Of a stretch of 64,000 nt of DNA, positions 3,213 to 24,750 are shown piece after piece. The stretch's first letter is position 1, and each line of letters opens with the position of its first letter. Below the pieces are notes generated by a model, which had not been told where the DNA came from, did no database searches, and was given only the letters and a program-made list of their open reading frames with translations. This DNA comes from Candidatus Bathyarchaeota archaeon. Its GTDB lineage: Archaea; Thermoproteota; Bathyarchaeia; Bathyarchaeales; Bathycorpusculaceae. The DNA lies in assembly GCA_963782525.1 (NCBI GenBank), contig CAWAKC010000001.1, positions 224,001 through 288,000 on the forward strand. Reading direction: 5' to 3'. A program made the position numbers and the translations under genes.

Positions 3213-3372
3213 ATGAACATGAGGGATCGTCACCTCAATAGTTGGGATCGTCGGGTACAACTTTTCTAATTCACCCAGATTACCCTCTAAATATACCACT
3301 AAAAAATTCTCGCAAACAATAATCCTAGACGACAGTATAGTTGTTAAATCAAACCATAGGAGACTGAATTGA
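3213..3372 (+). other. putative Ile/Val-rich leader frame of ilvB (ATG out of frame by 1 nt as read)
   Basis: Frame 3223-3372 reads GIVTSIVGIVG...TIILDDSIVVKSNHRRLN* and stops at the ilvB start; ATGs at 3213/3219 join it if one G of AGGG is removed. Confidence 0.35.
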
Positions 3373-5081
3373 AAATGGCAAAAATGTCTGGTGCACAAGC
3401 ACTCTTAGAATCCCTTGAACATCAAAAAGTTGAAGTTATCTTCGGCATATTAGGCGGCGCAATCCTCCCAGTATACGATGCGTTATGCGGCAACAAGAAA
3501 ATCCGCCACATCCTCGCACGACATGAGCAGTGTGCAGCACATGAAGCTGAAGGTTACGCAAGAGCCAGCGGAAGAGCAGGCGTATGCATGGCAACCAGCG
3601 GCCCGGGAGCCACCAACCTAGTGACAGGAATCGCTAACGCCTACATGGATTCCTCGCCGATAATTGCTTTAACTGGACAAATTCCAGCCTCAGGCACCAA
3701 CACCAGCTACATGATTGGCAGAGATGCCTTCCAAGAAGCAGACATCATCGGCATCACCACCGCCATCACCAAATACAGTTACCAGCCACGAACCGTTACT
3801 GAAATTCCCCTCATGGTTAACAATGCCTTCTACATAGCAACAACAGGCAGACCTGGACCCGTCCTAATTGATCTACCAAAGAACGTCCAATCAGGAATGG
3901 CCGAAGTCGAATTTACGAATAAAATTGATTTACGCGGCTACAAACTACCGACCGAACCGAATCCAGCAAGAATCAGCGAAGCTTCAGACCTGTTAGCCAA
4001 AGCTCAATGCCCGATCATTCTGGCAGGCGGCGGAGTCATAACTGCAGGTGCATCCGATGAACTGGTTAAAATGTCAGATTTACTGATGGCGCCAGTCGCT
4101 ACTACCTTCATGGGAAAAGGAGCATTCCCAGAAAATAACCCATTATCACTCGGAAGCATCGGCATGCATGGTAATCCAGCAGCTAACAAACTGATGGGTG
4201 AAGCAGACGTATTACTGGCTGTCGGAACAAGGTTTTCTGACCGCGCAACCGCAAACCTAGACAGCTTTGCCCCAAACGCTAAAAAGATTCACATAGACAT
4301 CGACGACGCAGAAATCAACAAGAACATCGAAATTGACGTTCCCATCGTTGCAGACGCTAAAGTCGCGATGAAGATGCTTTACACTGCAGTCTCACAGAAA
4401 TTGCGGAAGGGCGAAGGCAAAGCATGGACGAAACGAGTGAAAGAAGCTAAAGAACAGCTAAGTCCCCTTCTAAAAGAGTTGCCTAAAGACTTAATGCCTA
4501 AAGCGTTGCTAGTGGAGCTAAGGAAACTGTTGCAGGAAAACGCCATAGTCACTACCGAAGTGGGGCAAAACCAAATGTGGTCTGCGCTATACTTCCAAGC
4601 ATTAAAACCACGCACATTCATCAGTTCAGGCGGACTTGGAACCATGGGATTTGGTTTCCCAGCAGCAATAGGCGCAAAAGTCGCGTGCCCAGACCGACCA
4701 GTCGTGGACGTCGCAGGCGACGGCAGCTTCATAATGTCCGAGCAAGAACTAGCGTGCTCAGTAACGGAGAACATCCCAGTCACAGTCATCGTGCTAAACA
4801 ACTCAATCCTTGGCATGGTGGCGCAGTGGCAACGTATGCTCTACAAACGTCGCTACATGGCTGTTCACTTAGGCAAAACTCCAGACTTCGTTAAGTTGGC
4901 AGAAGCTTACGGAGCCCAAGGCATACGTGCAACGTCAATCGAGGAGTTCCACAAAGCTGTTAAGACAGCACTTACTAGTAAAGTAACAACGGTAATCGAC
5001 GTGCCCATTGGCTCAGAAACCGATGTGGTTCCCTTTGTGCCTCCAGGCTGCGGTTTACCCCAACAGATAGGTGACTACTAA
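3369..5081 (+). CDS. ilvB: acetolactate synthase large subunit (start probably ATG 3375)
   Basis: RHEQ, ATSGPGATN, DAFQE, SGGLGTMGFGFPAAIGA and TPP-binding GDGSF...NN motifs. Confidence 0.96.
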   Translation: MKMAKMSGAQALLESLEHQKVEVIFGILGGAILPVYDALCGNKKIRHILARHEQCAAHEAEGYARASGRAGVCMATSGPGATNLVTGIANAYMDSSPIIALTGQIPASGTNTSYMIGRDAFQEADIIGITTAITKYSYQPRTVTEIPLMVNNAFYIATTGRPGPVLIDLPKNVQSGMAEVEFTNKIDLRGYKLPTEPNPARISEASDLLAKAQCPIILAGGGVITAGASDELVKMSDLLMAPVATTFMGKGAFPENNPLSLGSIGMHGNPAANKLMGEADVLLAVGTRFSDRATANLDSFAPNAKKIHIDIDDAEINKNIEIDVPIVADAKVAMKMLYTAVSQKLRKGEGKAWTKRVKEAKEQLSPLLKELPKDLMPKALLVELRKLLQENAIVTTEVGQNQMWSALYFQALKPRTFISSGGLGTMGFGFPAAIGAKVACPDRPVVDVAGDGSFIMSEQELACSVTENIPVTVIVLNNSILGMVAQWQRMLYKRRYMAVHLGKTPDFVKLAEAYGAQGIRATSIEEFHKAVKTALTSKVTTVIDVPIGSETDVVPFVPPGCGLPQQIGDY

Positions 5082-5593
5082 TGGAAACAGGAAAAACCAA
5101 AGTAATCAGCATCCTAGTTGAAAACAAACCAGGTGTACTCCATACCATCGCAAACCTGTTCCGACGAAGAAACTTTAACATCGAATCCATCACGGTTGGC
5201 CCCACACAACAAGAGAACATATCACGCATGACCATAACAATCAAAGGAGACGAAAAAACAACCGAACAAGTTGTCAAACAAGTCGCCAAACAAATCGACG
5301 TCCTCAAAGTCGACGAGCTCTCACAAGGCAACTTCGTAATCCGCGAACTATCTTTGATAAAAGTTAACGTGCCAACCTCAAAAGAACGCAGCGACATAAT
5401 CAACTGTGTAGAAGTCTTCCGGGGCAGAATAATTGATGTCTCAACTGACAGCGTAACAGTTGAAATCACCGGAACCCCCGACAAAATCGACGCATTCCTC
5501 AACCTCATGAAAACCTACGGAGTCATAGAACTCGCCAGAACAGGCATAACAGCCCTAGCCAGAGGCGCAAAATCGATAAGAATCGACGAATAA
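5081..5593 (+). CDS. ilvN: acetolactate synthase small regulatory subunit
   Basis: ACT domain ENKPGVL...RRNFNIESITV, C-terminal ELARTGITALARG; overlaps the ilvB stop. Confidence 0.96.
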   Translation: METGKTKVISILVENKPGVLHTIANLFRRRNFNIESITVGPTQQENISRMTITIKGDEKTTEQVVKQVAKQIDVLKVDELSQGNFVIRELSLIKVNVPTSKERSDIINCVEVFRGRIIDVSTDSVTVEITGTPDKIDAFLNLMKTYGVIELARTGITALARGAKSIRIDE

Positions 5594-5689
5594 ACAGCAT
5601 TGACATAGCGGAAATACTTAATTGCTTGTTCTTTAAAATTCCCATTTATCTTAGGCATATTTAGGTTAATTCAAGGTAAAGGAAAGACT

Positions 5690-6958
5690 ATGAACATAAC
5701 AGAAAAAATCTTAGCCAAGGCTTCAGGAAAGAAAGCCGTACATCCAGGCGAAATCGTCGACGCAAACGTCGACATGATCATGATACATGACTTAACTGGA
5801 CCCTTAGCGGTTGAAGCCTTCAAAAAAATAGGCTCACAAAAAGTTTGGAATAACAAAAAAGTAGTGGTAATTCTGGACCATCAGGTTCCAGCAGAATCAG
5901 TAAAAGCAGCAGAACTTCACAAAACCATGAGGCAATTCGCCAAAGACCAAAACGTCACCTTCTACGACGTAGGCAGAGGCGGAATATGCCACCAAGTTAT
6001 GCCAGAAAAAGGACATGTAACACCAGGCAACGTAATCGTTGGCGCAGACAGCCACACATGCACCTACGGAGCATTCGGCGCATTCGCCACAGGTATCGGC
6101 TCAACCGAAGCAGCCGCGGTTATGGCTACAGGAAAAATCTGGTTCAAAGTACCCCCAACAATCAAAGTTAACGTTAAAGGCACCTTCAAAAAGTACGTTA
6201 CCCCAAAAGACCTAATCCTAAACGTAATCGGCAATTTAGGTGTAGATGGCGCCATATACAAAGCAGCGGAATTCACAGGTCCAACTATCCAAAAAATGAG
6301 CATAGCAGGGCGTATGACCGTTTGCAACATGGCAGTTGAGATGGGCGCCAAAAACGGCATAATCGCACCCGACGAAACAACAAGCAAATTCTTAGAAAGC
6401 AGAGTCAAAAACTTACCAGACTTCAAAGCCTTGCAAAGTGACAAAGACGCAGTTTACGAGCGCACAGTTAAATTTGATGTTTCTACGATGGAGCCACAGG
6501 TAGCTTGCCCATCCTCAGTTGACAACGTGAAACCCATCGCGGAAGTTGGAAACGTGCCAATCGAACAGGCATTCATCGGTTCCTGCACAAACGGCAGAAT
6601 CGAAGACTTACGCTTAGCTGCAGAAGTCATCAAAGGCAAACGCGTCAAAGACGGCGTACGAGCCTTAGTTATTCCTGCTTCCCAAGAAGTCTACCGTCAA
6701 GCCTTAAACGAGGGCTTAATGGAAATCTTCACCGACGCAGGCGCCATAGTGTGCGGTTCCGCATGTGGACCATGCTTAGGCGGCCACATCGGCTTACTGG
6801 CAGCGGGCGAATCATGCGTTAGCAGCAGCAACCGCAACTTCATCGGCAGAATGGGCAGCACCCAAGCAAACGTCTACTTAGCATCACCCGCAACCGTAGC
6901 GGCATCAGCAATCACAGGCAAATTAACAGACCCCACAAAGCTGGAGACAAAACCATGA
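5690..6958 (+). CDS. leuC: 3-isopropylmalate dehydratase large subunit (homoaconitase family)
   Basis: GADSHTCTYGA, FIGSCTNGR, CGPCLG and SNRNFIGRMG motifs; leu operon context. Confidence 0.92.
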   Translation: MNITEKILAKASGKKAVHPGEIVDANVDMIMIHDLTGPLAVEAFKKIGSQKVWNNKKVVVILDHQVPAESVKAAELHKTMRQFAKDQNVTFYDVGRGGICHQVMPEKGHVTPGNVIVGADSHTCTYGAFGAFATGIGSTEAAAVMATGKIWFKVPPTIKVNVKGTFKKYVTPKDLILNVIGNLGVDGAIYKAAEFTGPTIQKMSIAGRMTVCNMAVEMGAKNGIIAPDETTSKFLESRVKNLPDFKALQSDKDAVYERTVKFDVSTMEPQVACPSSVDNVKPIAEVGNVPIEQAFIGSCTNGRIEDLRLAAEVIKGKRVKDGVRALVIPASQEVYRQALNEGLMEIFTDAGAIVCGSACGPCLGGHIGLLAAGESCVSSSNRNFIGRMGSTQANVYLASPATVAASAITGKLTDPTKLETKP

Positions 6959-7455
6959 ACAGCAAAATCAAAGCGCCAGCCATAAAATTCGGCAACAACA
7001 TAGACACAGACGTCATCCTACCAGGCAAATACCTAATCTTAGTTGACCCATGCGAATTAGCAAAACACGCATTGGAAAGCTTAGACACCGAATTCGTCAA
7101 CAAAGCCAAAAAAGGCGTCATATTAGTTGGCGGCAAAAACTTCGGCTGCGGCTCAAGCAGAGAGCAGGCGCCCTTAGCGTTAAAGTATTCAGGCGTCAAA
7201 TGCGTCATCGCCGAATCGTTCGCCCGCATCTTCTTCCGCAACGCAATAAACATTGGTTTACCCGTAATCGAATGCAAAGGCATATCAAGCGCGGTGGAAA
7301 CAGGCGACGAATTAGTCGTTGACTTTGAGACGGGCAAAATCGAAAACGCTTCAAACGGCAAAAAATTCCAAGTCGAAAAACTGCCACCATTCATCCTAGA
7401 AATCTTAGCTGATGACGGATTAATCGAGAACTTAAAAGGAAAGATGAAAAAATGA
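6955..7455 (+). CDS. leuD: 3-isopropylmalate dehydratase small subunit
   Basis: NIDTDVILP, NFGCGSSREQA, SFARIFFRNAINIG motifs. Confidence 0.93.
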   Translation: MNSKIKAPAIKFGNNIDTDVILPGKYLILVDPCELAKHALESLDTEFVNKAKKGVILVGGKNFGCGSSREQAPLALKYSGVKCVIAESFARIFFRNAINIGLPVIECKGISSAVETGDELVVDFETGKIENASNGKKFQVEKLPPFILEILADDGLIENLKGKMKK

Positions 7456-8489
7456 CAGAATACAAAATATCCTTAATTCCCGGCGATGGCATCGGGCCAG
7501 AATTAACCGAAGCCACCCTAAAAGTCTTAGATGCAGTTCAGAAAAAATTCGGCGTTAAACTGCAGATCATTGAAGCTGAAGCAGGCGACGTTGCCCTTGA
7601 AAGAGTAGGCGCCGCATTGCCAGCAGATACCATTGAGAAAGTTAAGAACTCCCACGCTTGCCTAAAAGGACCCGTAGGCGAATCAGCAGCAGACGTCATC
7701 GTTAAATTGCGCGTCATGTTTGACCTTTACGCTAACCTACGCCCATTAAAGGCATACCCCAACGTTCCAGTCGCCAGACCAGACATCGACATGCTCTTTG
7801 TCCGCGAAAACACTGAAGACGTCTACAAAGGCTTAGAATTCACAATCGGCGCAGACACCACCTTGTGCCTACGCGTTATCACACGAGGAAACTGCGAACG
7901 CATCGCTCACAAAGCCTTCCAAATGGCACGCCTACGCAACGGCAAAAAGAAAGTCACAGCCATTCACAAAGCCAACGTTATGCGTGTAACCGACGGTTTA
8001 TTTCGTGACGTCTGCCGCGAAGTCAGCAAAGGCTATCCCGACATCGCGTTTAACGAACTCTACGTTGACGCCGCATCCATGCGACTAATTAAAGAACCAG
8101 AAATATTCGATGTCTTCTGCACTTGCAACATGTTCGGCGACATCCTCAGCGATGAAGCCGCACAGCAAATCGGAGGCTTAGGCATGGCTCCAGGCGCAAA
8201 CGTCGGCGAAAACTTTGGATTATTCGAACCCATCCATGGCTCCGCACCAAACAGAGCAGGAAAACATACCGCCAACCCAATCTCCATGATACTTTCAGCG
8301 AAAATGATGCTGGAGTGGCTGGGAGAAAAATACGGTGACAAGAAATGCTTACAAGCAGGCGCAGCCATAGAGAACGGTGTAGTTTACGCTTTGCGTAACC
8401 GTCAATCTGTTCCAGACTGCGGCGGCACCACCACAACCGTGGGCATGGCAGAAGCTATCGCTGCAGCCCTAACTGTGAAAAGTGGCTGA
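7452..8489 (+). CDS. leuB: 3-isopropylmalate dehydrogenase
   Basis: PGDGIGPE, RENTED, NMFGDILSD, FEPIHGSAP motifs; ATGA overlap with leuD. Confidence 0.88.
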   Translation: MTEYKISLIPGDGIGPELTEATLKVLDAVQKKFGVKLQIIEAEAGDVALERVGAALPADTIEKVKNSHACLKGPVGESAADVIVKLRVMFDLYANLRPLKAYPNVPVARPDIDMLFVRENTEDVYKGLEFTIGADTTLCLRVITRGNCERIAHKAFQMARLRNGKKKVTAIHKANVMRVTDGLFRDVCREVSKGYPDIAFNELYVDAASMRLIKEPEIFDVFCTCNMFGDILSDEAAQQIGGLGMAPGANVGENFGLFEPIHGSAPNRAGKHTANPISMILSAKMMLEWLGEKYGDKKCLQAGAAIENGVVYALRNRQSVPDCGGTTTTVGMAEAIAAALTVKSG

Positions 8490-10020
8490 AAGCATGACCA
8501 ACAAAACCTCAAAAAGCATCCGAATTTTTGACACAACCTTAAGAGACGGGGAACAAACCCCCGGAGTTTCTTTAACTGCAGACGATAAGATTGAGATAGC
8601 AGTCCAACTCAGCAAACTAGGCGTAGACGTTATTGAGGCGGGTTTTCCGAGTTCTTCTGATGGCGAAAAAAAAGTCGTCAAAGATATTGCCAACTTGGGT
8701 TTGACCTCAGAAATCTGTAGTTTATCTCGGGCAACGAGAGGAGACATTGACGCAGCAATAGCTTGTGACGTTGATTTAGTTCACGTTTTCATACCAACCT
8801 CACCAGTCCAGATGAAGTATGCAGTTAATTTGACTCCCGAACAGGTATTGGCTTCCACAGTTGATTCGGTTTCTTACGTGAAGAAGCATGGTGTAAAATG
8901 TGAGTTTTCGCCGATGGATGCCACACGTTCCGAGATGCCCTTCTTAAAACAGGTTTGTAAAGCCGCACAGGATGCAGGCATGGATAGCCTAAATGTACCT
9001 GACACCGTCGGCATCATGATTCCAAAAACCACAATAAAACTCATTGAAGAATTAAAAACCGTAGTCACCGTGCCTATAAGCACCCATTGTCATGACGACT
9101 TTGGTTTAGCTGTCGCAAACAGTCTAGCAGCGGTCGAAGCTGGCGCAGCCCAAGTGCATGTCGCCGTCAACGGCTTAGGTGAACGGGCAGGCAACGCGTC
9201 GCTAGAAGAAGTCGTGATGGCGCTGCACATTATTTACAAGTACAAAACAAACGTCAACACCCGTTTACTCTACAGCACATCGCGAATGGTTGCGTCCTTA
9301 ACTGGCATTACGGTGCAAGCTAACAAGGCAATCGTTGGCGAAAACGCCTTTGCCCACGAATCAGGCATCCACACACGCGGTGTAACAGAGAAACCGTTAA
9401 CTTTCGAACCAATAAACCCCGAATTAGTCGGCAGAACAAGAAAACTTGTCGCAGGCAAATTAGCTGGAACCCGAGGAATAAAAGCGGAACTTGAAGAAAT
9501 CGGCATCCACCCAACCGAAGAGCAACTCAAAGAAATCGTTCAACGCGTCAAAGATTTAGGCGACAAAGGCAAGATGGTCACTGATGCCGACTTGATTGCG
9601 TTGACTTCTGCTGTGATGGGTGAGGTGCTCGGTGAAGAAAAAATCATTGACTTATGCGACATGGCAGTCGTCACAGGCATCAAAGTCATTCCAACCGCTT
9701 CTGTACGCTTAATTTTAAATGGCAAAGAATACGTTGCCGCCGAAACAGGCGTGGGACCAGTAGACGCTGTTTTGAAGGCAATTCAGAAGTTGACCAGCAG
9801 CATAGAAAACATCCGCCTAAGCGAATACCGACTCGAAGCTATCACAGGCGGTTCAAACGCGGTGGCTGAAGTCGTTATAAAAGTCGAGGATGAAAAAGGC
9901 AACATCGTCAGCGCCCGAGCAGCCCGAGAAGACATCGTTATGGCATCTGTTGAAGCAATGATAAATGGCATAAACAAACTCTTGCTAAAGAACCATCAAA
10001 AGCAGGGAAACAAAAAGTGA
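8482..10020 (+). CDS. leuA: 2-isopropylmalate synthase (LeuA/CimA family)
   Basis: DTTLRDGEQTPG, HCHDDFGLA, GERAGNA, AFAHESGIH and a C-terminal regulatory domain; citramalate synthase activity not excluded. Confidence 0.85.
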   Translation: MAESMTNKTSKSIRIFDTTLRDGEQTPGVSLTADDKIEIAVQLSKLGVDVIEAGFPSSSDGEKKVVKDIANLGLTSEICSLSRATRGDIDAAIACDVDLVHVFIPTSPVQMKYAVNLTPEQVLASTVDSVSYVKKHGVKCEFSPMDATRSEMPFLKQVCKAAQDAGMDSLNVPDTVGIMIPKTTIKLIEELKTVVTVPISTHCHDDFGLAVANSLAAVEAGAAQVHVAVNGLGERAGNASLEEVVMALHIIYKYKTNVNTRLLYSTSRMVASLTGITVQANKAIVGENAFAHESGIHTRGVTEKPLTFEPINPELVGRTRKLVAGKLAGTRGIKAELEEIGIHPTEEQLKEIVQRVKDLGDKGKMVTDADLIALTSAVMGEVLGEEKIIDLCDMAVVTGIKVIPTASVRLILNGKEYVAAETGVGPVDAVLKAIQKLTSSIENIRLSEYRLEAITGGSNAVAEVVIKVEDEKGNIVSARAAREDIVMASVEAMINGINKLLLKNHQKQGNKK

Positions 10021-10829
10021 AAGTATCCTACCAGGGTGAAACTGGAGCCTACAGTGAAATGGCTGTCTTCAAGTTTTTCGGCAGCAAAGTAGAGCCAGTT
10101 CCCTGCAAAGATTTCCGAGACGTTTTTGAATCCGTTAAAACAGGCGCAGTTCCTAATGGTGTGGTTCCGATTGAGAACTCTATTGAAGGCAGCGTCAACC
10201 AAAACTACGACTTATTCCTCGCTTACGACCTCAAAGTTTGCGGAGAAGTCGCAGTAAAACTTGCCCATGTCCTGATCGCTAACCCCCAAACCAAATTCGA
10301 AAACATCGAAACAGTCTACTCGCACCCCCAAGCACTAGCACAATGCCGCAGTTACCTTGAAAAACACAGATGGGAAATTATCCCCGCCTACGACACCGCC
10401 GGAGCAGTCAAAGCCATCAAAGAAAAAGGACTTTTTAACGCTGCGGCCATTGCAAGCGAAAAAGCCGCAGACCTCTACGACATGAAGATTCTTGCCCGAG
10501 ACATCGCTGATAACCCATCAAACTACACGCGATTTCTTGTCCTATCCCATGAAGATGCCGCACCAACTGGAGACGACAAAACCTCAATAATATTTTCAGC
10601 TAAACATGCTCCCGGCACCTTATACCATGCTCTTGGAGAGTTTGCATCAAGAAACATCAACCTAACAAGAATCGAATCCAGACCCACAAAAACAACTGCT
10701 TGGCAATACAACTTTTACTTGGACTTTGAGGGCCATCGAACCGAGAAACGTTGTGCAGAAGCACTGCAAGCCCTAGAAAAGTATGCGACTTTCGTGAAAA
10801 TTCTGGGATCATACCCCAGAGCAATCTAA
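10017..10829 (+). CDS. pheA: prephenate dehydratase
   Basis: GAYSE, VPIENSIEGSV, SHPQALAQC, NYTRF and ACT domain NLTRIESRP. Confidence 0.95.
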   Translation: MKVSYQGETGAYSEMAVFKFFGSKVEPVPCKDFRDVFESVKTGAVPNGVVPIENSIEGSVNQNYDLFLAYDLKVCGEVAVKLAHVLIANPQTKFENIETVYSHPQALAQCRSYLEKHRWEIIPAYDTAGAVKAIKEKGLFNAAAIASEKAADLYDMKILARDIADNPSNYTRFLVLSHEDAAPTGDDKTSIIFSAKHAPGTLYHALGEFASRNINLTRIESRPTKTTAWQYNFYLDFEGHRTEKRCAEALQALEKYATFVKILGSYPRAI

Positions 10830-21297: not shown

Positions 21298-22533
21298 CTA
21301 GTGTGTTTTAAGCGAGTTTTTAATTAACTTTAATGCCTTTTCTTTATCATTCCAATCTACAAACAACAAAATACTTGAGGTGATAGTGAGGATACCTGAG
21401 ATGTTTATGCCGTTAACTCGCAGGTCTTCGCTGATTTTGCCGATGATGCCGTGGGTTTCTTCCAATCCGACTCCGCTGGTCTTGAGAAAGACAAGATCTT
21501 TTTTCACAGCCATAGCTATGGTTTCTTTGTTGCTTATGGTTATTTTGTGGATTTGGTTGAAAAGTGTATCGATGTTTTTTTCCTGGGGAACGTAGAGGAT
21601 GATTGAATTAGTGTTCATGGACATGCCGAGAAGCATAGAGTTTTCTTTGACTTTCTCAACCATTTCTGTAACGACTTGTGGGTTGGCTGATATGCCGTTT
21701 CCAATCACAGTTATCTCTGAGACGGGGGTAGGATGAGCGATTTCAACATCAAGCTCTGAGGCTAAACTGCCTTTAATTAGGGTGCCTGCCCTGCTCAAAT
21801 CGCTATGTGCATTGCTGATTACTTTAACGTCTATGTCTTTGGGTTTGTACTTGAGGGCTTTGCTATGAATGAATTTAGCGCCTGAATCTGCTAACCCAAC
21901 AAGTGTGGTTACGTCGGTTTCTGGGAGCAGTTTGGGGGACGCAATGATTTTGGGGTCGCCGGACATAATGCCGTCGGCATCTGTTACCAATACTACTTGG
22001 TTTGCGTTGATTCCCTGTGCGATTATGAATGCGGTGGTGTCGCTTCCGCCTCTGCCCAAAGTGGTGATTTTTCCATCTTTGGTTTTGCCCACGAAACCCG
22101 CTATTACGGGTATTGTGCCTTTTTCGACGAGTGGTAGGATGCATTCTTTGATGTTTTTGTCGCATTCTTTGAGGATTGGGTTGGCGTTTTGGAAGGAGTC
22201 GTCGGTGATTATTGGCCATTTGTTATCCATGGGGTCGAAGTAGCATGCGTCGACACCATTGTTTCTCAAGGCTGCGGCGAATATGCGTACGCTGGTGCGT
22301 TCACCCATGGAGAGGATGTCGTCTAATTCGTGTTTCTGGAGTTTTCCGTTCGAAGTGTTTTTGGCGGTGGTCATGAGGACATCGGTTGTTTTGCCCATAG
22401 CGGAGACTACGACGGCGATTTTAGTGCCTTTTTTAGCTTCATTAACAACAGCAACTACCGCTTTGAGGAGTCTCTCATGGTCAGCGAGGCTAGAGCCACC
22501 GAATTTAACAACTATAGTTTTGCTAGTTTGCAT
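21298..22533 (-). CDS. aspartate kinase
   Basis: VKFGGSS, VVSAMG, TLGRGGSDTTA motifs and C-terminal ACT-like domains. Confidence 0.9.
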   Translation of the reverse strand: MQTSKTIVVKFGGSSLADHERLLKAVVAVVNEAKKGTKIAVVVSAMGKTTDVLMTTAKNTSNGKLQKHELDDILSMGERTSVRIFAAALRNNGVDACYFDPMDNKWPIITDDSFQNANPILKECDKNIKECILPLVEKGTIPVIAGFVGKTKDGKITTLGRGGSDTTAFIIAQGINANQVVLVTDADGIMSGDPKIIASPKLLPETDVTTLVGLADSGAKFIHSKALKYKPKDIDVKVISNAHSDLSRAGTLIKGSLASELDVEIAHPTPVSEITVIGNGISANPQVVTEMVEKVKENSMLLGMSMNTNSIILYVPQEKNIDTLFNQIHKITISNKETIAMAVKKDLVFLKTSGVGLEETHGIIGKISEDLRVNGINISGILTITSSILLFVDWNDKEKALKLIKNSLKTH

Positions 22534-22552
22534 TTAGGTACCCCCGTTTTTC

Positions 22553-22590
22553 GCCCAGAACTATTCTCAAAAAATTTGTTAGTTCTGGGC
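22553..22590 (-). promoter_or_regulatory. leader hairpin (attenuator-like)
   Basis: Perfect 11-bp stem GCCCAGAACTA/TAGTTCTGGGC with a 16-nt loop containing U6; starts at the base after the leader stop and ends 19 nt before the aspartokinase ATG. Confidence 0.75.
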
Positions 22591-22677
22591 TTATGGAAAA
22601 TGGTAATAATAAAAATAGTAGTCGAAGCTAGGAAACAGTGACGCAGTGATGTTGATTTTGTTTTTTGCGTTGAGCAT
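22591..22677 (-). CDS. Tyr/Phe-rich leader peptide of the aromatic amino-acid operon (28 aa)
   Basis: Translated by hand: MLNAKNKINITASLFPSFDYYFYYYHFP*; 5 Tyr and 4 Phe in the last 14 codons; between promoter and hairpin. Confidence 0.78.
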   Translation of the reverse strand: MLNAKNKINITASLFPSFDYYFYYYHFP

Positions 22678-22710
22678 TGCTTCGAACCTGCCAATCAGTT
22701 CATCTTCCAA

Positions 22711-22728
22711 AAAATATAAGCGTTTCGG
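22711..22728 (-). promoter_or_regulatory. BRE/TATA-like promoter of the aromatic operon
   Basis: Minus strand CCGAAACG-CTTATATTTT; implies a start site near 22690, just upstream of the leader ATG. Confidence 0.65.
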
Positions 22729-22938
22729 ATTCAAGCTAAAGTTTAACTAATAATTTTTTGCAGTAGGACCATTTTCTGCCCTGTTTTGTTCATTCGATGG
22801 GTTATTTGAAACCATTTGGAATTCATTGTAGAAACCTAATTGAATTAGTTTATATTGGCATTTTTTAGCTAACTTGTGTGCTCTCAGCAGATTTTTATTC
22901 CCGATTCCCCTAGTACAAATCGGTTTTGGTGAACAAAT

Positions 22939-24750
22939 ATGCAGGGATGGACAGGTTTTTTCTTAAAAGTCGAGTTAACCAAAAGCACGGCTGTTGCTGA
23001 ACCTTACAGTGAAGATTTAGCTTTGAATTTTTTAGGCGGCAGAGGCTTCGCAATCAAAATTCTCTGGGACACCCTAAAACATGGAACTGACCCTCTCTCA
23101 CCCGAAAACAAACTAATCTTCGCCACAGGACCACTAACGGGAATCGGACTACCCAACAGCGGCAAACTAGTCATTGCCTCAAAAAGCCCTTTGACCGGCG
23201 GTTACGGCGACGGCAACTCTGGCAGCTGGGCAGCTGTGAACATACGCAAAGCAGGCTACGACGCACTCGTCATCGAAGGCAAAGCATCCCAACCAGTCAT
23301 ACTTCACATCAAAAATCGAACGTGGGAGTTTTTGGATGCGGGGGATCTGTGGGGTAAAAGCTCCTTTGAAGTCGAGGACCAACTCAGAAAAAAATATTCC
23401 AAGTTAGCAGGCATAATGTCCATCGGACCTGCAGGAGAGAACCTTGTAAAGTTCGCAACAGTGGTTTCTCAGAATGGACGTGCGGGTGGACGACCTGGGA
23501 TGGGCGCTGTCATGGGCTCAAAAAATCTCAAAGCCATTGTAGTCGAAGGTACCCAACCAATCCCCCTCGCTTTTCCCGATGAAATGAAAAAATTAGCTGT
23601 TGACGGCTACAAGGAACTTTTAACTAAACCACTCTATAGTTTCTGGAAAAGGCAAGGCACTATGTCCACGGTTGACTGGTGCCAAGAAAACAGCTGTCTT
23701 CCAACGCACAATTACAGGCAAGGCGTTTTCGACAAGGCAGAAGGCATAAGCGGCTTTACGATGGAGAAGATGAAGGTTTCCAACCGCGGCTGCCCACAGT
23801 GCAACATGACCTGCGGAAACGTGGTTAAGGACAGTGAAGGAAAAGATTCAGAGCTGGATTATGAGAACGTGGTTATGCTTGGCTCCAACATTGGTTTGGG
23901 AAACCTTGCGCAAGTAGCTACCTTAAACCGGTTGGCAGACGAATTCAGCTTTGATGGTATTTCTCTTGGGAGCGTAATTGGGTTTGCCATGGAAGCTTCG
24001 GAGAAGGGGCTAATTCCCGAGAAGATTGGTTGGGGCGATTTTGAAGCGATTAAGGCATTGATTAACGATATTGCGTACAGGCGAGGTTTGGGTGCGGTTT
24101 TAGCGGAAGGTGTCCGATCCGCAGCCGCAACCATTGGCAAAGGCTCTAGCGATTGGGCGATGCATGTTAAAGGCTTAGAAGTCTCCGCCTACGACTGCCA
24201 CACCGCACCAGGCATGGCGTTGGCATACGGAACCAGCTCAATTGGCGCCCACCACAAAGACGCTTGGATAATAACTTGGGAACAGAAATATGGCAGAGAA
24301 AAATACGACGAAGCAAAAGTCGACCATCTAATCCAAACCCAACTCCTACGCGGCGGAGCCTTCGAAGCACTCACCGTTTGCCGTTTTCCACACGGCTCAT
24401 TGGGCTTTGAGCTCGAATGGTACCAAAAGTACCTGCGGGCTTCAACTGGACGGAACTTTTCTATGGATCAGCTAAACCAGATTAGCGACAGAATACTTAC
24501 TTTAATTCGTGCTTTCTGGGTGCGGGAATACGGTGGCAAGTGGAGTCGTGATTTGGATGTTCCGCCAATGCGATGGTTCAAAGAGCCACTAACCGAAGGA
24601 CCCTTGAAGGGCGCTGTGCTTGATTTGGAAAAATACAACAAGATGTTGGACATTTACTATCAGAAGCGCGGCTGGAGCGAAGAGGGTGTTCCAACAAAAG
24701 AAACGTTGGAGAGGTTAGGGCTGGCTGACGTAGCAAGTCACTTAAGTTAA
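22939..24750 (+). CDS. tungsten-dependent aldehyde:ferredoxin oxidoreductase family protein
   Basis: KSPLTGG, GRPGMGAVMGSKNLKAI, CPQCNMTC, DYE and HVKGLE motifs. Confidence 0.93.
   Translation: MQGWTGFFLKVELTKSTAVAEPYSEDLALNFLGGRGFAIKILWDTLKHGTDPLSPENKLIFATGPLTGIGLPNSGKLVIASKSPLTGGYGDGNSGSWAAVNIRKAGYDALVIEGKASQPVILHIKNRTWEFLDAGDLWGKSSFEVEDQLRKKYSKLAGIMSIGPAGENLVKFATVVSQNGRAGGRPGMGAVMGSKNLKAIVVEGTQPIPLAFPDEMKKLAVDGYKELLTKPLYSFWKRQGTMSTVDWCQENSCLPTHNYRQGVFDKAEGISGFTMEKMKVSNRGCPQCNMTCGNVVKDSEGKDSELDYENVVMLGSNIGLGNLAQVATLNRLADEFSFDGISLGSVIGFAMEASEKGLIPEKIGWGDFEAIKALINDIAYRRGLGAVLAEGVRSAAATIGKGSSDWAMHVKGLEVSAYDCHTAPGMALAYGTSSIGAHHKDAWIITWEQKYGREKYDEAKVDHLIQTQLLRGGAFEALTVCRFPHGSLGFELEWYQKYLRASTGRNFSMDQLNQISDRILTLIRAFWVREYGGKWSRDLDVPPMRWFKEPLTEGPLKGAVLDLEKYNKMLDIYYQKRGWSEEGVPTKETLERLGLADVASHLS

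Follow-up and report, generated by a model that had tools for sequence, protein, structure and literature searches.

Leader-peptide attenuation is a textbook bacterial mechanism, and the locus described here raises the question of whether an archaeon may possess something comparable, a short ORF and a set of RNA helices that together report the supply of tyrosine and phenylalanine through the position of a ribosome. The stretch of DNA analysed (64,000 nucleotides, hereafter the window) comes from an uncultured Bathyarchaeia archaeon, in which the leader element precedes the aromatic amino-acid operon on the minus strand. The operon begins with ask, encoding an aspartokinase, followed in order by genes for a DeoC-type aldolase, 3-dehydroquinate (DHQ) synthase II, aroD, aroE, a GHMP-type kinase, aroA, aroC, an aminotransferase and prephenate dehydrogenase, and is of the type representing the archaeal aspartate-semialdehyde (DKFP) route to aromatic amino acids, background to which is given in PMC4162585. 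Divergent from the leader promoter, and approximately 220 nt from it, lies a gene for an aldehyde:ferredoxin oxidoreductase (22939-24750, plus strand), and an ilvB-ilvN-leuC-leuD-leuB-leuA-pheA (prephenate dehydratase) cluster occupies positions 3369-10829 of the window (plus strand), where no Ile/Val/Leu-rich short ORF was seen in the 630-nt gap upstream of ilvB. A crude scan of the genome for single-residue-rich short ORFs gave no convincing further leader peptide adjoining biosynthetic genes; the same C-terminal tail, WWWWIKI and stop, is carried by two short ORFs of genome G000 (contig C2, 17804-17839, and contig C9, 118344-118388), which have no obvious biosynthetic gene adjoining. The parts of the leader, in the direction of transcription, are as follows.

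22728-22721, minus strand: BRE-like element CCGAAACG of a putative promoter.
22719-22711, minus strand: TATA-like element TTATATTTT of the putative promoter.
22689, minus strand: transcription start as predicted, some 26 nt downstream of the middle of the TATA-like element, with a TATA-to-GGTTCGAAGC spacing that is conserved in the genus alignment.
22685-22679, minus strand: UCGAAGC, 5′ strand of helix P1, in the 5′ UTR.
22677-22591, minus strand: leader ORF of 28 codons and a stop, MLNAKNKINITASLFPSFDYYFYYYHFP, rich in Tyr and Phe.
22628-22622, minus strand: GCUUCGA, 3′ strand of P1, in the Ser17-Phe18-Asp19 codons.
22620-22597, minus strand: candidate sensor codons Tyr20 to Phe27 (the aromatic block), containing U5 (22615-22611) and U4 (22600-22597).
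22593-22591, minus strand: leader stop codon, UAA.
22590-22580, minus strand: GCCCAGAACUA, 5′ arm of hairpin P2, beginning directly after the stop codon.
22574-22569, minus strand: U6 in the 16-nt loop of P2, with an A-rich run just before it.
22563-22553, minus strand: UAGUUCUGGGC, 3′ arm of P2.
22552-22546, minus strand: spacer GAAAAAC between P2 and the ask Shine-Dalgarno sequence (SD).
22545-22540, minus strand: GGGGGU, the ask SD, followed by the ask ATG at 22533.
22533-21298, minus strand: ask (aspartokinase, 411 aa, Pfam AA_kinase and ACT domains), first gene of the operon.

The comparisons below draw on the ask ortholog, which is present in 24/24 other genomes of the genus and in 91/201 genomes drawn from the order (E<=1e-90). 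Fifty-nine unique upstream regions made up the genus alignment, from which 9 exact duplicates were left out, together with L071 (cut at a contig end), L028-L030 (ask paralogs of 34-39% identity without the leader) and L025-L027 (members of other families). To these were added 80 upstream regions, 69 from other genera or families and 11 from the same genus, among which the leader calls of L123 and L128 are doubtful, and L126 and L140 (too little sequence past the called stop) and L134 (Ns) lacked a usable tail for the later hairpin counts. The names BRE and TATA for CCGAAACG and TTATATTTT are assumed from the archaeal promoter consensus, and the RNA presumably starts near 22689, as judged by the usual archaeal promoter spacing; CTTATATTTT is at least 90% conserved among the 59 relatives, and GGUUCGAAGC is predicted to form the extreme 5′ terminus of the transcript. 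Metatranscriptome contigs of relatives from wetland, permafrost and bioreactor samples (85-99% alike), lying over positions 22300-22728, carry ask, hairpin and leader in one piece, and one such contig, of depth 2.7, extends to 22728, beyond the predicted RNA start; these contigs are assembled and represent a small share, and RNA ends, strand and level are not readable from them.

Phe and Tyr account for 9 of the last 12 leader codons, an enrichment in cognate codons of the kind that marks bacterial attenuators. An aromatic ORF, defined by a length of 8-60 codons and 7 or more aromatic residues among the last 14, was found upstream of ask in 68/80 of the order-level regions as compared to 4/399 controls (400-nt stretches preceding randomly chosen long ORFs in this genome), and the comparison of sequences shows the aromatic leader ORF to be conserved, the C-terminal part of the peptide being constant and its N-terminal half variable. 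Tyrosine is specified by UAU at 180/281 (64%) of the Tyr codons in leaders as compared to 30/142 (21%) in 17 genes of the window, leader counts which are not independent because the leaders are related to one another; such a bias would be expected under selection for slow decoding, U-richness or a combination of the two. The leader AUG, with an SD-like AGGU, adjoins the P1 5′ strand.

Hairpin P2, which comprises 11 bp at -16.6 kcal/mol (z -5.9), was equalled in stability by 0/200 shuffles. Across the order of Bathyarchaeia a stop-abutting hairpin in the strict sense (6 or more stacked pairs, the first pair no farther than 6 nt from the stop, a span not exceeding 62 nt and an energy of -12 kcal/mol or lower) was present in 122/132 unique sequences as compared to 20/660 shuffles; a looser criterion, which 385/660 shuffles also satisfied, was dropped. 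Among the 59 relatives 91% of P2 cells are paired, and the 13 one-sided changes within its 9-bp core all yield G-U or U-G pairs, a pattern that agrees with a helix in the sense RNA alone, as the same changes are A-C mismatches on the opposite strand. The few cells that do not pair look like alignment artefacts, and in L057, for instance, the arms are complementary with the 3′ arm one column out. Within the genus double changes are few and P2 covariation in the 59 relatives did not exceed that of shuffles; across genera the stems differ with compensation, being GCCCAGAAC/GUUCUGGGC here, GCCCAGGCG/CGUCUGGGC in g18, GCCCAG..AGCU in family f7, GGAAGAGCC/GGCUCUUCC in family f11 and GGAGAAACCG/CGGUUUCUCC in g24. 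The gap from hairpin to SD is 7 nt in 38/66 genus sequences, and alignment of the relatives shows P2 as a conserved hairpin that extends from the leader stop codon to 7 nt before the ask SD. A search of Rfam over positions 22000-23200 gave no family match, the best scores (11.7-18.7 bits as against gathering thresholds of 45-100) being at chance level.

Such conservation might also be expected if P2 were the binding site of a regulatory protein, acting on RNA or DNA, with a leader ORF that has no sensing role, and the near-invariance of the 9-bp core across 59 species, among which the identity of ask proteins goes down to 69% (range 69-100%), is in keeping with that explanation. We nevertheless regard it as improbable, as the spacing of the two arms ranges between 12 and 22 nt and the P2 motif occurs once in the genome, which together argue against a dimeric DNA operator; a single occurrence leaves no regulon, and P2 was rejected as a regulon operator on that ground. 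The restriction of core substitutions to G-U, the joint change of both arms in other genera and the conservation of the aromatic codons alongside the hairpin likewise speak against a protein site.

The second helix, P1, had been noticed in the sequence-only reading as a perfect 7-bp complement between UCGAAGC, just before the leader AUG, and GCUUCGA in the Ser-Phe-Asp codons, an observation that holds and extends to the relatives. A 7-mer complement arose by chance within the upstream 100 nt in 90/500 dinucleotide and 190/1000 mononucleotide shuffles, and since a single complement of this length is therefore unremarkable (18-19% of shuffles), P1 required comparative support. This was obtained, as each of the seven pairs is kept in 52-59 of the 59 relatives and RNAalifold arrives at the helix independently; changes confined to one strand mostly give G-U pairs, the exceptions being U39-to-C in L003 and L031 (C-A) and L023 (G-A). 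Within P1, Phe is encoded by UUC in 63/64 unique genus leaders, other leader Phe codons being UUU in approximately 122/142 cases. In six other genera of the family P1 is kept at -13 to -21 kcal/mol, and its extension GCUAUA:UAUAGC becomes GCUAC:GUAGC there through a U-A to C-G swap. P1 is thus shown by sequence comparison to be a conserved helix joining the predicted RNA 5′ end to the Ser-Phe-Asp codons. A P1-like helix built from different sequence is seen in g24/g25 leaders (L142, L143, L135), where codons 3-6 (CCAAUAGCCAC) and Ser-Gly-Tyr-Trp codons (GUGGCUAUUGG) form a perfect helix of approximately 11 bp.

The placement of P1 at the predicted 5′ end and of P2 ahead of the first long ORF would suit a pair of stability or processing elements that guard the transcript against 5′-to-3′ decay, with no sensing of amino acids, though such an arrangement leaves unexplained both an aromatic-codon ORF with biased, rare UAU codons and the fixed contact between stop codon and hairpin, and we think it no likelier than a protein site. 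The parts of the leader, ORF and helices alike, are shown by these comparisons to exist under selection.

Competition between helices had also been proposed from the sequence, in the form of a pairing between the Tyr-Phe codons and the junction of loop and 3′ arm, the strands of which are the following.

22618-22611, minus strand: CUAUUUUU, 5′ strand of the alternative helix, in Tyr-Phe codons.
22568-22561, minus strand: GAGAAUAG, 3′ strand of the alternative helix, in the loop and 3′ arm.

The two strands can indeed form 8 bp, including 2 G-U, and in the masked folding described below CUAUUUUU:GAGAAUAG reaches a probability of 0.97 in this sequence with the A site at the stop codon, and only in that state. 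As a conserved competitor the pairing fails, as it is of low complexity, is paired in 69% of cells among the 59 relatives, a level matched by 161/500 shuffles and by a slide of +3 (68%), and in a register-free test at least 6 bp between the freed loop/3′ arm and aromatic codons were available in 25/65 sequences. The search for conserved pairings among relatives therefore upheld P1 and P2 and placed CUAUUUUU:GAGAAUAG at chance level, and the two helices that are real do not compete with each other. A pairing of the 5′ UTR with the P2 5′ arm was likewise rejected as an antiterminator here, being good in family f7, weak in this genus (7/70 sequences at p<=0.05) and absent in g18, so that neither of the two pairings tested represents a conserved antiterminator helix that excludes a terminator. 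In family f7 (L090-L122, e.g. L092:204-403) AACUGGGC, located before the leader AUG, repeats the sequence of the hairpin 3′ arm and is able to pair with its 5′ arm; this pairing holds in 88% of cells as compared to 1-49% when slid, without covariation within the genus, and in g16 of that family 13/24 sequences reach p<=0.05. Judged by these pairings the f7 leader may be a three-segment switch, a device lacking in the window's own genus. Genus g64 displays the same relation of 5′ UTR to hairpin arm with a quite different sequence.

How the position of a ribosome would act on P1 and P2 was modelled by masked folding, in which the footprint was assumed to reach 12 nt upstream and 15 nt downstream of the first base in the P site. 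In the absence of a ribosome P1 and P2 form with probabilities of 0.93 and 1.00, respectively. With the A site at Tyr20-Tyr24 the probability of P1 falls to 0.00-0.17 and that of P2 is 1.00; at Tyr25-Phe27 P1 is again at 0.90-0.97, with P2 at 0.85-1.00; and with the A site at Pro28 or the stop codon P1 is at 0.95 or 0.45, respectively, and P2 at 0.00. In the model, a stall at Tyr20-Tyr24 thus opens P1 while P2 stays closed, and P2 melts only when the ribosome has arrived at Pro28 or the stop. That a ribosome at the stop codon covers the 5′ arm follows from their contact (stop at 22593-22591, arm from 22590), as had been proposed, and in the modelled foldings the hairpin is present or absent according to where the ribosome stands. 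Every aromatic codon sits where a stall leaves P2 closed, and Phe27 is the only one that touches P2, which remains at 0.85 with the ribosome there.

Because P2 survives a ribosome at any of the aromatic codons and melts only once the leader has been completed, we lean, tentatively, towards reading the element as the downstream half of a ribosome-read Tyr/Phe sensor before the ask-aro operon in which closed P2 would mean operon on, a reading that is possible though somewhat short of probable. Under starvation, or when the leader is untranslated, P2 would be closed and RNA polymerase would proceed into ask. With an ample supply of Tyr and Phe the ribosome would complete the leader, unzip P2 and depart, the RNA close behind the polymerase, comprising U-rich codons, loop U6 and 3′ arm, would be left single-stranded, and termination or cleavage, by aCPSF1/FttA or as intrinsic oligo-U termination, would cut expression irreversibly. 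The irreversible step must be assumed, since melting by a terminating ribosome is transient. P1 would then re-close over the leader ribosome-binding site, in which case sensing would be limited to the first, co-transcriptional ribosome. The regulatory output that we infer for the leader faces difficulties of its own, in that the exposure gained by U6 is small (unpaired probability of 0.83 with P2 open as against 0.69 with P2 closed, a slight difference), that other families carry a U-run after the hairpin and an aromatic codon at -1 to -3 from the stop, and that transcription-translation coupling is poorly documented in archaea, functional evidence for it being called scarce in a recent commentary (PMC13681488). 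Simple coupling, in which a trailing ribosome suppresses termination at a U-run, has the wrong sign for a biosynthetic operon.

The opposite sign is obtained if P2 is a negative element that, when closed, hinders the 30S subunit at the ask SD or acts as a pause site or terminator, so that a stall on the last aromatic codons (Phe27 here) opens P2 and turns the operon on, a logic of the ermC/cat or pyrBI type; we take this to be unlikely as an account of P2, and equally unlikely as an account of how the operon is switched on. It has the right sign with no need for tight transcription-translation coupling, and it fits the other families better than does the reading with closed P2 as on, since an aromatic codon is found within the last 1-3 codons in every family, with the hairpin beginning 0-6 nt from the stop codon or within it, in most other lineages the hairpin ends 0-5 nt from the SD, and U3 or longer follows the hairpin in 9/11 sequences of family f11 and 5/5 of genera g20/24/25, where it often pairs with the stop codon. 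In the window's own genus it meets three obstacles, namely that only Phe27 touches P2 and leaves it largely closed, that the SD lies 7 nt outside the helix, with mean accessibilities in 66 genus sequences that are flat at 0.36 free, 0.41 stalled and 0.41 at the stop, and that 0/64 genus sequences carry U3 or longer at the 3′ end of the hairpin or beyond it. The unpaired probability of the ask SD in this sequence is 0.37-0.57 in all ribosome states, and a clear fall in SD access on covering of the 5′ arm was confined to f5_g5 (0.58 to 0.03), g24, g25 and some f7 genera; a switch by SD sequestration of the ermC/cat type was therefore rejected for this genus, the modelled accessibility being flat across ribosome states.

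A short ORF that ends at the foot of a stable stem, with an SD just beyond, resembles shunt layouts, and ribosomes finishing the leader could in principle be passed across the hairpin base to the ask start by termination-reinitiation or shunting. This would have the wrong sign for a biosynthetic operon, 57 nt separate stop from start and ask has its own SD, which makes it the most improbable of the alternatives; control of reinitiation at the aspartokinase start, raised in the sequence-only reading, is without support.

Returning to termination as the output, the absence of a U tract after the hairpin, where GAAAAAC follows, and the presence of U6 within the loop were both as described from the sequence and were confirmed on the minus strand. 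A bacterial intrinsic terminator had been discounted on these grounds, correctly so, as a scan for bacterial-type terminators over 22300-23000 returned 0 sites and the U-run that an intrinsic terminator carries behind its stem is missing from the genus. The run is instead inside the hairpin, with U4 or longer in 57/64 genus sequences and a loop U5 or longer in 42/54 unique genus loops as compared to 4% expected from shuffled loops, and these counts show, at the level of sequence, that the loop U-run is selected in this genus. The U5, U4 and U6 tracts lie within 47 nt and are of the length, U4 or longer, that characterises archaeal terminators. Two full-length genes of the aCPSF1/FttA type, above the TIGR03675 curated cut-off, are present in the genome (G000; C11:13182-15065 and C10:212570-214456), and T5 or longer follows 394/960 long-ORF ends in this genome as compared to 209/2000 coding windows; the two genes and the oligo-T at gene ends make exposure or hiding of a U-tract plausible. 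According to PMC8716108, the KH domains of aCPSF1 bind U-tracts and hairpins are absent from archaeal terminators. Taken a step further, the locus would exemplify purely archaeal attenuation with a Rho-like logic, in which the ribosome, on finishing the leader, opens a protective hairpin and lays bare U-tracts at which aCPSF1/FttA ends transcription; we judge this doubtful, and no less doubtful the corollary that some of the U-tracts are the Tyr/Phe codons themselves, so that hungry ribosomes and the closed hairpin together shield the RNA.

The element has been conserved throughout an order of uncultured archaea that abound in soil and peat, and it backs aspartokinase as the committed entry to the aspartate-semialdehyde (DKFP) aromatic route in these organisms. 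It has the appearance of an amino-acid sensor that is read by ribosomes, descriptions of which have so far come only from bacteria, and full-text searches of the main text of articles outside subscription journals found no archaeal leader-peptide attenuator. As a defined template of approximately 190 nt, it makes coupling, oligo-U termination and the action of aCPSF1/FttA testable by simple mutations.

Compared with known systems, the locus is similar to pheL-pheA and trpL of E. coli in having a short ORF, rich in codons for the end product, directly upstream of a biosynthetic operon, and in that the position of the ribosome sets which RNA helices exist; it differs in its archaeal host, in a single hairpin that touches the stop codon, in the absence of a U-tract after that hairpin and of a conserved overlapping antiterminator, and in that stalled ribosomes leave the hairpin closed. 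In the tna operon of E. coli the ribosome on TnaC masks a Rho loading site adjoining the stop codon, and the logic proposed here is alike insofar as a ribosome held on the leader would shield RNA from a transcription-ending factor and its release would expose that RNA, except that the factor would be aCPSF1/FttA acting on U-tracts and that the stall would occur at hungry Tyr/Phe codons rather than being induced by a ligand at the stop. The pyrBI and pyrE attenuators share a leader ORF that ends at or in a hairpin, a ribosome near the stop that prevents the hairpin, and U-rich DNA before the 3′ arm; their hairpins are followed by a U-tract, which is lacking here, and UTP is sensed through pausing of the polymerase. 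A leader ORF and one hairpin upstream of a regulated start are likewise found in translational attenuation, as in ermC and cat and in the mycobacterial poly-Cys short ORFs for which it is described in bioRxiv 10.1101/834739; here, unlike in ermC and cat, neither SD nor AUG is part of the hairpin, and the model shows no change in how accessible they are. The U5, U4 and U6 tracts, the encoded aCPSF1 and the oligo-T at gene ends are features shared with the archaeal U-tract/aCPSF1 (FttA) terminators treated in PMC8716108; known archaeal terminators stand at 3′ ends and do not require a hairpin, whereas the tracts of this element are located in a 5′ leader, one of them in the loop of a hairpin.
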